Of a stretch of DNA of 64,000 nt, positions 47,181 to 53,630 are shown piece by piece. The notes under the pieces are model-generated. The model ran no database searches. It saw nothing but the letters and a program-made list of their open reading frames with translations, and was not told where the DNA came from. Every line of letters starts with the position of its first letter. Position 1 is the stretch's first letter. The stretch is from contig CAVXGK010000002.1 of assembly GCA_963761305.1 (NCBI GenBank), positions 128,001 to 192,000 of the forward strand, given 5' to 3'. Source of the DNA: an uncultured Gemmatimonadaceae bacterium. GTDB lineage: Bacteria > Gemmatimonadota > Gemmatimonadetes > Gemmatimonadales > Gemmatimonadaceae. A program made the translations under genes and the position numbers.

Positions 47181-49883
47181 TCAGAGCCAGGAGCCGAAGC
47201 GCCGAATGTACCAGCCTTTCACGATCTGCGTCAGCACGGAATACGACAGCAGGATCACGACGAGCCAGGCGAAGTAGCTCGTCGGAAGCGGCACGAGTCC
47301 CAGTTTTGCGCCGAGCGGAATGAACGGCAACACGAGACCGGCGGCGATGATCGCGCCGGTGGTGAACAACACCGGCAGCGTCGCGCGGCTCTGGACGAAG
47401 GGCAGCTTGGCGGTGCGAATCATGTGGACGATGAGCGTCTGCGTCGCCAACGACTCGATGAACCATCCCGACTGAAACAACGCCTGCCGTGCCGGCGCGT
47501 TGGCGCGGAACACGTACCACATCACGAGAAACGTGACGACGTCGAAGATCGAGCTGATCGGCCCGATGAAAATCATGAATCGGCCGATGTCGTCGGCCCG
47601 CCATTGCCGCGGAACCCGGATGTACTCCGGGTCCATGTCGTCCCACGGAATCGCCGCCTGCGAGAAATCGTACAGCAAATTCACCGTCAGCAGCTGCACG
47701 GGAAGCATGGGGAGAAACGGCAGAAACGCGCTGGCGATCAGCACACTAAAAACGTTTCCGAAGTTCGAGCTCGCCGTCATCTTGATGTACTTGATCGTGT
47801 TGCCGAAGGTGCGACGCCCTTCGACCACGCCCTCCTCGAGCACCATCAGACTTTTCTCGAGGAGGATGATGTCCGCCGACTCCTTGGCGATGTCCACCGC
47901 CGAGTCGACCGAGACGCCGACGTCGGCCTGACGCAGCGCGCCGGCGTCGTTGATGCCGTCGCCCAGAAAGCCGACCGTGTGGCCGCGCGCCCTGAGCGAG
48001 CGCACGATGCGCGTCTTGTCGTCGGGCGTGAGCTTGGCGAACACCCTGTGCTCGGCGGCGATCGCGCCGACAGCGGCGTCGTCCAATCCGGCGAGCTCCT
48101 GTCCGAGCACGATGTGCCCGACGTCGAGACCGACGTCGCGGCAAATCTTGCGCGTCACCAGATCGTTGTCGCCGGTGAGGATCTTGACGGTGATCCCCTG
48201 TGCGGCAAGCGCTTTCAGCGCCGGTCCGGCGGACTCCTTCGGCGGATCGAGGAAGCCGATGAATCCGGCAAGGACCATGTCGGACTCGTCGGCGATCGAG
48301 TAGGGGCCGTGCGTCGTGGGAAAGAGCCGATACGCCACGGCTACGACGCGAAACCCGTCCTCGTTCATCTCGGCGACCAGCTCGCGGGCATCCTCGCGGC
48401 GTTCCGCTTCGAGTTCGACGACCTGCGCCTCTCCGTCGTGCGCGCGTTCGTCGCGCACGCGTGTGCAAGCGGCGAGAATCTCTTCGGCCGCGCCCTTGCA
48501 GATGAGCTGATGGTCCTTGCGTTCGTGGTCGACGACGACCGACATCCGGCGCCGGGTGAAGTCGAACGGGATCTCGTCGACTTTGCCGTACGCCTTGTCG
48601 ATCGCCAGCTCTCGCTGCAACTCGGCGTGGTCGAGCACCGCGACGTCGAGCAGGTTCTTGAGTCCCGTCTGGTAGAAGCTGTTCAGGTAGGCGAGCGCGA
48701 GGACGAAATCGTCTTCCTCGCCCACGACGTTGACGTGCCGCTCCAGCACGACCTTGTCCTGCGTGAGCGTGCCGGTCTTGTCGGTGCACAGCACGTCCAT
48801 CGCGCCGAAATTCTGAATCGAGTTGAGGCGCTTTACGACGGTCTTGCGACGCGCCATCGTCACGGCGCCTTTCGCCAGATTCGTCGTGACGATCATCGGC
48901 AGCATCTCGGGGGTGAGCCCGACGGCGACGGCGAGGCCGAACAGCAGTGCCTCGACCCAATTGCCCTTGCTGAAGCCATTGAGCAGGAAGACGATCGGCA
49001 CCATCACGGCGATGAACCGGATGAAGAGCCAGCTCACCTTCTGTACGCCGACGTCGAACGCCGTCTCCACGCGCGGGCCGCCGAGACCTTTCGCCAGCCG
49101 GCCGAAGCTGGTATCGCCGCCCGTCGCGACGACGGCCGCCGTTGCGGTGCCGCTCACGACGCTCGTGCCCATGAAGCAGACCGTCGGCAGCTCGGTCAGC
49201 GATGGCGCGCCACTCGGCCGCATCGCGCGATCCACCTTCTCGACCGGCAGCGCCTCGCCGGTGAGCGACGCCTGGCTCACGAACAGGTCCTTCGCGGCGA
49301 CGACGCGCACGTCGGCCGGGATCATGTCGCCGGCCGAGAGATACACGATGTCGCCCGGCACGAGCTCGTCCATCGGGATCTCGCGTCGGCGCGTGGCGGG
49401 CGTGCTGTCCGGTTCGAACTCGTCGCCCGCGCGCTCGACCGCGGTGCTCGTACGAACCAAGGCGCGCAGCGCCTGCGCGGACTTGCCCGAGCGAAATTCC
49501 TGGACGAAGCGGAGTCCGGTGCTGAACACGACCATCGCGCCGATGACGGTCATCGCCTCGTTGTCGCCCGTCAGGCCCGACACGACGGCGAGCGTCGTCA
49601 GCAAGAAGTTGAACGGGTTGGCGAAGGCGCGGGCCAGCTCGGCGTACCAGCTCGGCGGTTTCTCGTGCGCGACCTCGTTGCGTCCGTAGCGCTGGCGACG
49701 CGCCAGGACTTCGTCGTCGGTCAGGCCTTGGCGATCGGTGTCGAGCGACGAGTACGCCGACTCCGGGTCGCAGTAGGCGAGCTCGATGAGGCGCGCGTCC
49801 AGCACCGCGGAGCCCTTCCGGGCACCGTTCTTCGCCGAAGAGGCGGGGCCGCGCGCCGGAGCGCCCGGAATGCTCGAGGCCAT
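47181..49883 (-). CDS. mgtA: Magnesium-translocating P-type ATPase
   Basis: LTGE, AVGLTPEMLP, DKTGT, GDGIND, ASSNFGNVFS, FQSGWFIES, HMIRT. 900 aa from ATG 49883. Confidence 0.95.
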   Translation of the reverse strand: MASSIPGAPARGPASSAKNGARKGSAVLDARLIELAYCDPESAYSSLDTDRQGLTDDEVLARRQRYGRNEVAHEKPPSWYAELARAFANPFNFLLTTLAVVSGLTGDNEAMTVIGAMVVFSTGLRFVQEFRSGKSAQALRALVRTSTAVERAGDEFEPDSTPATRRREIPMDELVPGDIVYLSAGDMIPADVRVVAAKDLFVSQASLTGEALPVEKVDRAMRPSGAPSLTELPTVCFMGTSVVSGTATAAVVATGGDTSFGRLAKGLGGPRVETAFDVGVQKVSWLFIRFIAVMVPIVFLLNGFSKGNWVEALLFGLAVAVGLTPEMLPMIVTTNLAKGAVTMARRKTVVKRLNSIQNFGAMDVLCTDKTGTLTQDKVVLERHVNVVGEEDDFVLALAYLNSFYQTGLKNLLDVAVLDHAELQRELAIDKAYGKVDEIPFDFTRRRMSVVVDHERKDHQLICKGAAEEILAACTRVRDERAHDGEAQVVELEAERREDARELVAEMNEDGFRVVAVAYRLFPTTHGPYSIADESDMVLAGFIGFLDPPKESAGPALKALAAQGITVKILTGDNDLVTRKICRDVGLDVGHIVLGQELAGLDDAAVGAIAAEHRVFAKLTPDDKTRIVRSLRARGHTVGFLGDGINDAGALRQADVGVSVDSAVDIAKESADIILLEKSLMVLEEGVVEGRRTFGNTIKYIKMTASSNFGNVFSVLIASAFLPFLPMLPVQLLTVNLLYDFSQAAIPWDDMDPEYIRVPRQWRADDIGRFMIFIGPISSIFDVVTFLVMWYVFRANAPARQALFQSGWFIESLATQTLIVHMIRTAKLPFVQSRATLPVLFTTGAIIAAGLVLPFIPLGAKLGLVPLPTSYFAWLVVILLSYSVLTQIVKGWYIRRFGSWL

Positions 49884-49906
49884 GGGTCGGTGGGGCTGCG
49901 CCGCGA

Positions 49907-49934
49907 ACGCTAGAGAGATCGCGAACGGTGTCAA
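49907..49934 (-). promoter_or_regulatory. sigma70-type promoter of mgtA
   Basis: Minus strand TTGACA (49934-49929), N16, TAGCGT (49912-49907), 23 nt before the ATG. Confidence 0.55.
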
Positions 49935-49972
49935 CGCTTCGTCGTACTCGCTAATGGATCCTAGTGGGCAAA

Positions 49973-50126
49973 TGGGTTGCCGCGTTACACTTCGTGTAGC
50001 GCGCGCTGGGGCGCCTCCTGTCCGCGGCAAGGGAGCAATCCCACCCAACTGGTTCGTTCGTTCCACGTTTCGAACCTTCTTCCGGCCTGTACTCAGCGGA
50101 CTTCAGGCGTACACGGGAGGAGGAAC
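49973..50126 (+). ncRNA. Candidate cis-regulatory structured 5' leader of the ankyrin-LRR gene
   Basis: GGGA-GCAA-TCCC GNRA hairpin; GGTTCG/CGAACC hairpin; SD-sequestering stem; long-range duplex 50012-50025/50096-50109. Confidence 0.6.
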
Positions 50127-53100
50127 ATGTCCAGGCGTATTGCGCCCACGGATTCCCTCGAGAGTCTGAAGAGGGAGGCGAAGCGCTGGCTCAAGGCGCT
50201 TCGCGAGGACGTCGAGGACGCGCGCGACCGATTCGCGAAAGCGCTCCCCGACGCGACGGACTCGCCGACGCTCCGCACTATCCAGCACGCCCTCGCGCGA
50301 GAGTTTGGGTTTTCCGGGTGGACGGCGCTCAAGCAACACCTCGAGGCGTCCGCGACCGGCGCGCGCGCCGACGCGGCGATCGTGTCGCGGTTTCTCGACA
50401 ACGCGTGCCCTGACCATCACGTGCGCGGCGGCCCGGACCACGTCCGCGCCCGCGGCACGGCCATGCGGTTGCTCGAGCGGTACCCGGAGATCGCCAATGC
50501 GAGTTTCTATACGAAGGTCGTGTGCGGCGACCTCGCCGGCGTCCTTGGCGATCTCGACGCGAATCCGGAACTGGCCACGGCTCGAGATGGTCCGCCGCGG
50601 CCGAAGCGATCGGAGGCAGGCAATTCACGCGATCTCCTGACGAAGGACTGGGGACCGAAGGGCTGGACGCCGCTCCTCTATCTCTGCTTCACCCGCCTGC
50701 CGCTCGACGCGGTGAGCGAGAACGCGGTCGCGATCGCGACGGCACTCCTCGACCGGGGCGCGGACCCGAACGACTTCTTCATGGCCGGCGACAGCCGGTA
50801 CACGCCGTTGGTCGGCGCGATCGGCGAAGGGGAAGAGGATCGTCCGCCGCACGCGAGACGTGACGAGTTGGTGCGACTGCTCTTGGATCGCGGCGCCGAG
50901 TTCGCGTCGTCGCTGGGCAACTACGGCGGGCAGGTGATCTACAACATTCATTTCCACGGCCACGTGTTGTGGTACCTGAAGCTGATGCATGAGTACTCGG
51001 TGCGACGAGGCCGCGCCGCCGACTGGGACGATCCGGCGTGGTCCATGCTCGGGCAGGGCGGCTACGGCGACGGCGCGCGCTGGCACCTCTCGATCGCCGT
51101 GCAACACAACGACCTCGAGTTGGCCGAGTGGTGCCTCGCGCATGGAGCGAATCCAAACGCGCCTCCCGCGAACGCGAAGACCTTGCCGCAGCGTACGCTG
51201 TACGAAGAAGCGATGCGCCGCGGTGAGACGGAGATGGCCGAGTTGTTCGTGCGGTACGGGGCGCCGCGCACCGCGGTCGAGCTGTCGCCGGTCGAAGCGC
51301 TCACCGCGGCGGCGATGCGCCTCGATCGCGACGCGGTGCGCGCCCATCTCTCGCGGCATCCGGACCTGACGGCGGCGCCCCAGCCGCTCGACATGGCCGC
51401 GAGCGAGAACCGGGCCGACGTCGTCGCGTTGCTCCTCGACGTCGGCATCTCGCCCGACGTCGCCAACCGGCAGAACGAACGGCCGCTTCATCTCGCGGCG
51501 TACGCGAACGCGCTCGACGTGGCGACGCTTCTCATTGCCCATGGCGCGGAGATCGATCCCGTCGAGTCGAACTGGAGCAACACGCCGCTCGGCGCCGCGG
51601 TGTACTCCCAGCACCAGGCGATGATCGATCTGCTGAGCCGATACAGCCGCGACATCTGGGAGCTCGCGTATGCCGGAAAGCTCGAGCGCCTGCGCGACGT
51701 GCTCGCCGACGATCCCGATGGCGCTCGCGCCGCCAGCGGGGGGCAGACGCCGCTCATGTGGCTCCCGCCCGACGACGAATCGCGCGCGATGGCGATCGCT
51801 CGGCTGCTCATTGCCAACGGCGCCGATCCGTCGCCGCAAGACGCGAACGGAATGAGCGCCGCCGACCGAGCGGAACGACTGAGCATGTTCGACCTCGCCG
51901 CGATGCTGCGTCGTGCCTCGACGCCGGCGGCGCGCGCCGCCGTGGAACGGTTTCAGCGCGGAGCGGTGAATCTGCTCGACGCCTATCGCACCGGCACGCC
52001 CGAGGCGATGCAACGTCACTGGGCCGACACGTGGCATCGCCGCTCGTGGGAGGCGATGCGCCGCTACGTCCAGCTTGACCTGGGACGACCACCGGCGGGC
52101 GAGGGCGAGGACGTGCCGATCGCGCTGGGCGACGCGCGCTGGCTCATCATGCGTGACAACGGCTTCGCGAGCTGGGAATCGTTCATCGAGCACACGATCG
52201 ACCAGGCGGCGAGCCCGCGACCGCTCGCCTCCGCGCCGTTTCGCTTGCTGTCGAAGCCGACCGAAGAACTCGCCCCCGCGGTCGAGCGGACGCGCGATTG
52301 GGACGCCGCGATCGCGATGCTCCGCGCCGGCGGGCTGCCCGGACTCGACGCGAACGGACAGATGACCGACGACGTCCTCGAGCGAATCTCGCGTCTCGAG
52401 CACGTCAGCGTGCTCCGGCTCGGCGGCTCGAAACACCTCACCGACGCCGGCGTCGCCCACCTGGCCCGCATGACCGGGCTGCGCGAGCTGGATCTGGGCG
52501 GCTGCCCGATCAGCGATCGCTCATTGGAGATCCTTGGACGGCTGCCCAATCTCGAGAAGGTCGGTCTGTGGCGGACGGGCATCAGCGACGCCGGGGTCGG
52601 GCATCTCGCTAAGAGTCCGCGGCTCGTCGAGGTGGATCTCGCGTGGACGCCCACCGGCGACGGAGCCCTGCGCGCGCTGGCCGGAAAAGAGACGCTCACG
52701 CATTTCCGCAGCGGCGATCACGTCACCGACGAGGGCCTCCGGGCGCTCCACGACTATCCCGTGTTCAAATCGTGGCGCGGCGGCGAGGTCGTGCTCGGAC
52801 TCACGTCGCCCGAGGCACAGCCGAACATGCTGTTCCTGCGGGGAACTCTCACCGATCGCGGGCTCGCCAGCCTCGTCGGGCTCGACGGACTGTTCGGTCT
52901 CAACATCGACGACAGCGGCTTGGCCATTACGGCGGGCGGATTGGGACCGCTTGTCTCGCTCCCACACCTCGGCTTCCTCGCCTTCGACGCGACCGACGAC
53001 GCGATGCCGTACATCGCCGCGATGCCGCATTTGCGATGTCTCATGTGCCAGGACACCAGCGCCGGCGACGACGGCTTCGTCGCGCTCGGCCGCTCGCGGT

Positions 53101-53630
53101 CGATCGAGTACATCTGGGGTCGCCGCTGCCACAACTTGCGCTCGGGCGGCTTCGCGGCGCTCGCCGAGATTCCCACGCTCCGCTCGCTGTCGGTGAGTTG
53201 CAAGAACGTGGACGACGCCGGATTGTCGGCGCTGCCGCGGTTTCCGTCGTTGCGGGAGCTGATGCCGATGGACGTTCCCGACGACGGCTATCGGCACATC
53301 GGGCGCTGTGAAAAGCTCGAGTCGCTCGTGTTGATGTACTGCCGGGAGACGGGCGACGTTGCGACGTCTCACATCACGGGACTGGCGAACCTCAAGAAGT
53401 ATTTCGCGAGCTACACGCGAGCGACCGATCGGACGCTGCAGTTCTTGGCCGGCATCCCGTCGCTGGAATCCATCGACCTCTCGGCAATTCCCGGCATGAC
53501 GAACGCGGGGGTCGCCGCGCTCACGGCGCTGCCGCGGCTTCGCTTCCTCCGGCTGTCGGGAATGCAGCACGTCGATCTCGAGCGTGTCCGGTCGTTCAGC
53601 CCCACCGTTCGCGTCGAGCTGTCGCCATGA
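50127..53630 (+). CDS. Ankyrin-repeat plus leucine-rich-repeat protein with a duplicated small helical module (1167 aa)
   Basis: GGAGGAGG SD and ATG 50127. N-terminus SLESLKREAKRWLK..IQHALAREFGFSGW; ankyrins (GWTPLLY, YTPLVGA, RPLHLAA, NTPLGAA, GQTPLMW); second module ARWLIMRDNGFASW; LRRs (LTDAGVAHLARMTGLRELDLGGCPISD). Confidence 0.88.
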   Translation: MSRRIAPTDSLESLKREAKRWLKALREDVEDARDRFAKALPDATDSPTLRTIQHALAREFGFSGWTALKQHLEASATGARADAAIVSRFLDNACPDHHVRGGPDHVRARGTAMRLLERYPEIANASFYTKVVCGDLAGVLGDLDANPELATARDGPPRPKRSEAGNSRDLLTKDWGPKGWTPLLYLCFTRLPLDAVSENAVAIATALLDRGADPNDFFMAGDSRYTPLVGAIGEGEEDRPPHARRDELVRLLLDRGAEFASSLGNYGGQVIYNIHFHGHVLWYLKLMHEYSVRRGRAADWDDPAWSMLGQGGYGDGARWHLSIAVQHNDLELAEWCLAHGANPNAPPANAKTLPQRTLYEEAMRRGETEMAELFVRYGAPRTAVELSPVEALTAAAMRLDRDAVRAHLSRHPDLTAAPQPLDMAASENRADVVALLLDVGISPDVANRQNERPLHLAAYANALDVATLLIAHGAEIDPVESNWSNTPLGAAVYSQHQAMIDLLSRYSRDIWELAYAGKLERLRDVLADDPDGARAASGGQTPLMWLPPDDESRAMAIARLLIANGADPSPQDANGMSAADRAERLSMFDLAAMLRRASTPAARAAVERFQRGAVNLLDAYRTGTPEAMQRHWADTWHRRSWEAMRRYVQLDLGRPPAGEGEDVPIALGDARWLIMRDNGFASWESFIEHTIDQAASPRPLASAPFRLLSKPTEELAPAVERTRDWDAAIAMLRAGGLPGLDANGQMTDDVLERISRLEHVSVLRLGGSKHLTDAGVAHLARMTGLRELDLGGCPISDRSLEILGRLPNLEKVGLWRTGISDAGVGHLAKSPRLVEVDLAWTPTGDGALRALAGKETLTHFRSGDHVTDEGLRALHDYPVFKSWRGGEVVLGLTSPEAQPNMLFLRGTLTDRGLASLVGLDGLFGLNIDDSGLAITAGGLGPLVSLPHLGFLAFDATDDAMPYIAAMPHLRCLMCQDTSAGDDGFVALGRSRSIEYIWGRRCHNLRSGGFAALAEIPTLRSLSVSCKNVDDAGLSALPRFPSLRELMPMDVPDDGYRHIGRCEKLESLVLMYCRETGDVATSHITGLANLKKYFASYTRATDRTLQFLAGIPSLESIDLSAIPGMTNAGVAALTALPRLRFLRLSGMQHVDLERVRSFSPTVRVELSP

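Follow-up and report, generated by a model that had tools for sequence, protein, structure and literature searches.

What does the DNA ahead of a large ankyrin-LRR gene encode, and what would it do for that gene? The gene lies in a 64,000-nucleotide stretch from an uncultured Gemmatimonadaceae bacterium (the window), and a sequence-only reading of the region before its start codon had proposed a translational switch built from many helices, perhaps controlled by the small N-terminal module of the protein itself. The features of the locus are as follows.

50127 to 53630, plus strand: ankyrin-LRR gene, 1167 aa, in the order module, ankyrin repeats, second module, leucine-rich repeats
50127 to 50351, plus strand: N-terminal helical module, aa 1-75, with basic stripe K15/R16/K19/K23, a candidate RNA-binding domain
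51930 to 52193, plus strand: internal degenerate copy of the module, aa 602-689, without K15, K19 and K23 (E 3.6e-8 against the module profile)
50116 to 50123, plus strand: Shine-Dalgarno (SD) sequence GGAGGAGG, as read from the sequence
49907 to 49934, minus strand: divergent promoter-like site TTGACA-16-TAGCGT for an mgtA-like P-type ATPase, outside the leader RNA

The mgtA-like coding sequence runs from 49883 to 47181 on the minus strand (Pfam), and it does appear, as the sequence-only reading held, to have its own promoter on the opposite strand, seen in the sequence as TTGACA-16-TAGCGT at 49934-49907 and unlisted in the consensus scan. This promoter-like site is ∼20 nt from the gene start (49883-49934, minus strand), which leaves no room for a magnesium-sensing leader, and Rfam gave no hits there. 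A tie between the leader and mgtA was rejected, since the upstream neighbours vary from relative to relative. A coding extension from TTG 49977 was likewise rejected; the frame is open in the window copy, but 68 of 100 relatives carry in-frame stops. That open frame covers 49977-50126, from TTG 49977 through the leader, and continues into the ankyrin gene, so the RNA may be hidden by gene callers in an over-long CDS. No terminator was found between the leader RNA and the gene.

The 5' end of the RNA can be placed from a promoter that recurs in the family. TTGAC is present 54-60 nt upstream of the GUCCGC strand of pseudoknot PK2 (see below) in 63 of 146 distinct leaders, and 61 of those 63 have a -10-like A2/T6 hexamer 16-18 nt downstream. 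The corresponding features of the window are listed here.

49986 to 49991, plus strand: inferred -10 box TACACT, sitting at the family's -10 position
49998 to 50126, plus strand: leader RNA, its 5' end (49997-49999) inferred from the promoter position; conservation begins here

With TACACT in the -10 position, the leader RNA probably starts near 49998, and TTGCCGCG (49977-84) would be promoter spacer. The -35 position of the window copy (about 49962-68) is a poor match. Model R1 matches 49992-50129 at 98 bits, the window leader being itself a training row.

Folding energy alone does not rise convincingly above chance: 49960-50140 gives z = -1.74, a value equalled by 15 of 200 shuffles, and 49998-50130 gives z = 0.19. 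The real helices were decided by comparison. Alignment A1 holds 126 leaders, 21 of 147 extracted rows having been excluded as near-duplicates or for odd anchors; anchor-based counts, made on 100 rows of <85% identity with 4 rows removed beforehand, agree with it. The structure composed of P1, PK1, PK2, P2, P4 and P5 is paired in 92.5% of 3510 cells of A1, and 16 of its 28 pairs vary on both sides; none of 500 shuffles, which ignore relatedness, was as good, and slid controls gave 41–54%. These comparisons support a real and conserved leader with two pseudoknots, three further stems and an anti-SD stem, with the following predicted elements.

50001 to 50014, plus strand: P1 hairpin, GCGC 50001-04 with GCGC 50011-14, whose loop bears the 5' strand of PK1
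50007 to 50047, plus strand: pseudoknot PK1, UGGG 50007-10 with CCCA 50044-47
50020 to 50101, plus strand: pseudoknot PK2, GUCCGC 50020-25 with GCGGAC 50096-50101 in the P5 loop
50026 to 50043, plus strand: conserved joiner GGCAA (50026-30), P2 stem GGGA/UCCC (50031-34/50039-42) with a variable loop, and conserved A50043
50051 to 50076, plus strand: variable hairpin GGUUCG/CGAACC, not conserved in the family
50077 to 50121, plus strand: P4, the anti-SD stem CUUCUUCCG/CGGGAGGAG, 50077-84 with 50114-21, extendable to 50075-76/50122-23
50085 to 50108, plus strand: P5 hairpin, GCCUG 50085-89 with CAGGC 50104-08, with GCGGAC in its loop

All four pairs of P1 vary on both sides, and 86 of 100 leaders pair it fully (best of three loop lengths). 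PK1 is 92.3% paired in A1 with both-side changes in three of four pairs, and in the Glyoxalase_8 subtype of leader, described below, all five of its pairs change on both sides. PK2 is 99.5% paired in A1, a figure for which the 5' strand was mostly preset by the search pattern; it was therefore tested in the Glyoxalase_8 subtype, which had been found through the protein. There, 132 of 132 PK2 cells are paired in 22 leaders and three of six pairs change on both sides, and the whole structure is 87.0% paired with both-side changes in 17 of 23 pairs (0/500 shuffles by percent paired). This subtype has GGUGAA as its joiner, and its hairpin precedes the joiner. Pairing of the SD is itself conserved: the P4 cognate duplex scores -13.6 kcal/mol versus -10.0 kcal/mol with shuffled partners, and in 91 of 92 leaders at least three of the four bases of the SD tetramer are paired. 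P5 position 4 is paired in 92 of 92 leaders versus 57.5 when shuffled (C-G 40, U-A 38, G-C 8), in a count that imposes GCC/GGC anchors lacking from 8 of 100 rows. No extension of PK2 beyond six pairs was found. A pairing between the GG that follows PK2 and the CC that follows P2 suits invariant bases; it was rejected on the single informative sequence, where it breaks and which keeps PK1.

The complementarities listed in the sequence-only reading are all present where it placed them, with GCGGAC exactly at 50096-50101, and comparison sorts them. GUCCGC/GCGGAC and UGGG/CCCA are supported by covariation, as the pseudoknots PK2 and PK1 respectively, and GGGA/UCCC is supported as P2. The stem thought to bury the SD holds in its anti-SD part, CUUCUUCCG/CGGGAGGAG, but not in its UGUAC/GUACA part, which is paired at 5/5 positions in 1 of 92 leaders and is private to the window. 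The helix TTGCCGCG/CGCGGCAA (49977-84/50023-30) fails, as all eight pairs form in a single leader of 99, that of the window, with 4–6 of 8 in its seven closest relatives, and its upstream strand would be promoter DNA. CGCCU/AGGCG also fails, being 67.9% paired versus 67.0% when shuffled (49/500), with all five pairs in 16 of 94 leaders. GGUUCG/CGAACC, counted earlier as part of the structure, falls in a variable region 17–54 nt long that forms a hairpin of -3 kcal/mol or lower in 50 of 96 leaders. The GNRA loop taken to point to the plus strand gave the correct strand, but a central GNRA is found in 1 of 100 leaders, and a loop private to the window copy is no argument for strand. The P1 and P5 hairpins were absent from that reading. 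Of the translational switch itself, what stands is an uncatalogued cis-acting leader that pairs the SD; a specific two-state switch is unsupported, since one of its competing helices is promoter DNA and the other lacks covariation.

No conserved alternative ON fold was found among three candidate alternatives, none of which covaries (invariant strands cannot show any covariation). Pairing of the joiner with the anti-SD strand scores -6.75 for cognate versus -6.86 for shuffled partners (247/300), far weaker than P4, and was rejected; pairing of the 5' linker with the SD, also rejected, is possible and lacks covariation (205/300). These results bear on the proposal that binding activates translation, or that the leader senses temperature or translation stress with no ligand. 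P4 has many U-G pairs, and the joiner can pair the anti-SD strand at -5 kcal/mol or lower in 80 of 92 leaders, but this alternative neither covaries nor approaches P4 in strength, and a thermometer would leave the link to the module, described next, unexplained; we regard the proposal as quite improbable.

The leader has many relatives. The source genome has four copies, each before a gene starting with the 75-residue module; besides that of the window these are:

G000:C1:477494-477638, minus strand: further leader copy before a module gene, with PK2 as ACCCGC/GCGGGG, a compensatory change plus a mismatch
G000:C2:1535206-1535345, plus strand: further leader copy before a module gene
G000:C1:1322751-1322880, minus strand: further leader copy before a module gene

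A leader is present in all 30 loci of relatives retrieved by the module, one of them truncated at a contig end. A strict 19-base core pattern found 118 stretches in 3/64 parts of the genome collection, which extrapolates to about 2,800 such stretches across a wide range of phyla; the records are titled Acidobacteriota, Actinomycetota, Gemmatimonadales, Verrucomicrobia, Planctomyces, Proteobacteria and others, and Methylobacterium radiotolerans (L361) is a carrier that is cultured and non-pathogenic. The module profile matches 10,958 clusters at 50% identity. A search of Rfam 15 agrees with the earlier description of the leader as uncharacterised: there was no match at the gathering threshold in the 64-kb window, the region around the leader gave four hits attributed to chance (E 0.35-4.8), and there were tRNAs only in 30 related loci covering all subtypes. 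No phage protein matches the module, and five viral pattern hits comprise one full element with the module, one half element and three chance matches. Half elements adjoin rearrangements, with the 3' part only in L258 (and a remnant in L299) and the 5' part only in L067 and L154.

The RNA tracks the module in both directions. Of 118 core-pattern loci, 106 have the module downstream, and the 12 misses are seven chance matches (≤23 bits), two locus ends, one broken gene and two half elements. Model R1, run on 61 and 151 sampled genomes, gave 29 hits, six of them training rows; all 29 precede the module and none precedes any other gene type. Conversely, 43 of 50 module genes carry the RNA in 20 genomes that were chosen for having one pattern hit (26 of 33 without seed loci), and the seven others are one with a divergent RNA seen by eye, one internal copy, one fragment and four with none. 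In two Pseudomonadota samples the second leader subtype precedes 26 of 26 module-bearing Glyoxalase_8 genes (four held out of the model), and L236, which has the Glyoxalase_8 C-terminal domain and no module, has no RNA. Plasmids provide a natural test, for which 12 of 52 records with a glyoxalase relative were retrieved: the RNA is present before five of five glyoxalase genes with the module (42–83 bits, none in training) and before none of seven without it (best 6.5 bits). Seven weak hits of model R2 (24–28 bits) were read as false, as the module is absent downstream and several lie in apparent coding sequence. By comparison, then, RNA and first module appear linked one to one, a linkage that co-inheritance of neighbours would also yield and in which kin are not independent.

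What follows the module is by contrast diverse, mostly ankyrin repeats but also LRR, Clp_N, ClpX zinc finger, FliM, FliG_C, glyoxalase-like and helicase-like domains. The RNA and module behave as a portable cassette ahead of unrelated cargo. Pieces of housekeeping machines recur as cargo in alignment A4 (P0002-P0121), where Clp_N is found in 10, zf-C4_ClpX in 2, FliM in 3 and FliG_C in 2 of 120 proteins; L191 and L238 have cargo that we take to be Lon N-domain-like.

A metabolite or ion riboswitch, in a gene whose module domain is needed under the same condition, is disfavoured by this pattern. The family has features of riboswitches: a conserved pseudoknotted core, invariant unpaired bases (the joiner and the CC of the 5' linker) that would suit a small-molecule pocket as well as they suit a protein, and P4 as a plausible expression platform. 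Pseudoknot riboswitches that sequester the SD are known in SAM-II, preQ1-II/III and guanidine-III. The leader is like these in its 5' UTR position, its pseudoknot and its paired SD, and unlike them in lacking an Rfam match, in following a module, and in holding the SD in a nested stem and not in a pseudoknot. Multi-phylum spread, pseudoknots and many near-invariant bases also fit the criteria for RNAs with sophisticated tasks given in PMC5737381. The RNA, however, follows the module and not a pathway (0/7 module-less glyoxalase genes, 29/29 hits before the module), the cargo is functionally unrelated, no ON fold covaries, and the RNA does not precede several non-homologous genes of a single pathway. 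We think a riboswitch unlikely.

The module is predicted as four helices (pLDDT 85), with K/R at positions 15, 16, 19 and 23 on helix 1. In first copies these positions are basic in 183, 148, 193 and 144 of 195 sequences, respectively, compared with 9, 22, 21 and 10 of 53 internal copies, whereas the core is held in both: A57 193/195 versus 52/53, W65 194/195 versus 52/53, and L14 164/195 versus 46/53, with L68 also retained in internal copies. The basic stripe is kept only in first modules, a contrast to be read with a profile built from first copies, whose conservation is partly circular, and with internal copies that are more diverged overall and drift at non-basic positions too (Q53 18/53, L49 39/53). 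Both 15 and 19 are K/R in 137 of 142 RNA-led modules versus 4 of 11 RNA-less N-terminal modules, the latter a small set; the four are L173, L182, L296 and L299. L203 and L262 have modules without K19 and yet divergent RNAs upstream, seen by eye. These patterns make the module a likely binder of the leader.

The window module has no Pfam hit at E 0.1, and the window protein does not match Pfam Glyoxalase_8 (PF20066) at its cut-off of 23.7 bits; the best relative, L094, reaches 22.3 bits over profile positions 4-64. The module is nevertheless homologous to the N-termini of Glyoxalase_8 and NCBIfam PRK05973 (hhalign probability 97.0 and 96.3), families whose models are named for their C-terminal cargo and whose leaders share the same topology. 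Foldseek gave no solved relative at E 0.001, none of the known RNA-binding folds gave a match (a lack of matches does not mean a new fold), and the best structural comparison has Z 4.5 and rmsd 4.5 over 63 aligned residues (model pLDDT 85). Sequence searches with the module gave nothing clear, and PADLOC gave no real match (1/40 at E 0.0097).

We hold with moderate confidence that the module represses its own translation through the leader RNA. In the cell the leader 49998-50126 would form both pseudoknots, with a stem covering the ribosome-binding site; aa 1-75 of the encoded protein would bind the doubly knotted leader; and binding would stabilise the SD-paired state, shutting off further translation of the gene in a negative feedback that some signal would presumably relieve. 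Autoregulation by the small N-terminal module had been offered as a candidate earlier, and the comparisons lend it real support, with the structured 5' UTR pairing the initiation region (from the inferred start) and co-occurring with the gene for a putative binder. Counting against autoregulation are the PRK05973 leaders, with the SD outside P4 in 8/8, and the window's poor -35 box.

More tentatively, the cassette might be a one-component translational sensor, in which the module shuts its own mRNA until the cargo binds its target, freeing the leader and amplifying the sensor. Equally tentative is the corollary that the cargo would then be ankyrin/LRR arrays or decoy Clp, ClpX, FliM and FliG domains, carried behind a dedicated RNA-operator tag in ∼11,000 protein clusters from many phyla; housekeeping-derived cargo could serve as decoy sensors.

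All of the evidence for binding is shared by a proposal in which the module binds the RNA for another purpose, as a bound partner or inhibitor resembling a type III antitoxin or as a scaffold for co-translational assembly, with SD pairing secondary. In its favour, the fold exceeds in size and conservation what plain SD blocking requires, and one subtype has its SD outside P4. Type III toxin-antitoxin systems (ToxI, AbiQ) have tandem pseudoknot repeats, a terminator and then an endoribonuclease toxin. The leader resembles type III RNAs as a pseudoknotted RNA just upstream of a protein that it may bind, but it is single copy, without repeats or terminator, no nuclease or other toxin-like domain was found in the Pfam hits, and there is no real PADLOC match. 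One full element with the module among the five viral hits, and an anti-SD strand that covaries with the SD strand, also speak against this proposal, and we judge it distinctly unlikely.

Several copies per genome might suggest a selfish element or a self-cleaving ribozyme, and double pseudoknots are known from HDV-like and twister ribozymes. The order of strands in the leader is unlike the HDV fold, however, there is no Rfam match, and the RNA sits at a fixed place, after the promoter and before the start codon of a single type of gene, which makes this explanation highly improbable.

Autogenous repression of this kind has precedents. Both uS15 and T4 gp32 repress their own translation via a leader pseudoknot, as described in passages of PMC10931766 and PMC3014915, respectively. 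In ribosomal-protein operators (the uS15-rpsO pseudoknot, the uS4 alpha operon, bL20), according to passages of PMC10931766, a product-bound leader pseudoknot located where translation starts blocks initiation, as is proposed here. Here, however, the genes downstream do not encode ribosomal proteins, no Rfam leader matches, there are two pseudoknots, and the putative binder is a distinct module joined to cargo of unrelated kinds, with no primary RNA target known. In T4 gene 32, passages of PMC3014915 describe a pseudoknot upstream of the start that acts as the nucleation site for the gene 32 product, which its primary ligand titrates; there the ribosome-binding site is unstructured and the protein binds ssDNA, whereas the present leaders pair the SD and belong to genes on chromosomes or plasmids.

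We take the leader to represent a new RNA family and the module a new domain, which together would act like known autogenous operators but as a portable cassette. No description of either was found in the open-access literature searched. Ankyrin and glyoxalase are absent as search terms from the main texts of PMC11109978, PMC8632094 and PMC5737381 and from the supplement text of PMC8632094 and PMC2864571. The core motif is absent from the supplement text searched for PMC2864571, in which alignment gaps could mask a motif. Neither Rfam 15 nor the papers searched contain this RNA, which spans several phyla, has two covarying pseudoknots and comes with a partner domain that is itself uncharacterised. 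If the module does bind and repress, RNA and protein would form a self-regulating cassette with no tie to ribosomal or replication proteins; a role could then be assigned to the N-termini of about 11,000 protein clusters, Glyoxalase_8 and PRK05973 proteins among them, and the subtypes would be candidate orthogonal RNA-protein pairs for synthetic translational control.

Some leaders diverge further. The PRK05973 genes above the cut-off in 201 genomes (8/8) have a third leader of the same predicted topology, by inspection, recognised by neither R1 nor R2. In these leaders (L303-L310) PK2 is CCCUCC/GGAGGG and the SD lies outside P4 in all eight. Complementarity between their 5' linker, CCUCC(U/C), and the SD is complete in seven of eight, with a matching two-sided change in L303 seen by eye, and a third long-range pair between linker and SD is possible. 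Divergent leaders were also seen by eye before divergent modules in L325, L262, L203, L201 and L198-L200, with weak or no model score except in L198-L200; in this set PK2 reads CGCCCAC/GUGGGCG, CCCAC/GUGGG, ACUCGC/GCGAGU and GUUCGC/GCGAAC. L173:1300-1500, where a module with an intact basic stripe is joined to a glyoxalase-like domain, has a shorter, different leader that is scored by neither model. At L227:1490-1720, ∼30 nt of the leader 5' flank recurs immediately ahead of the annotated start, ∼170 nt 3' of the RNA.
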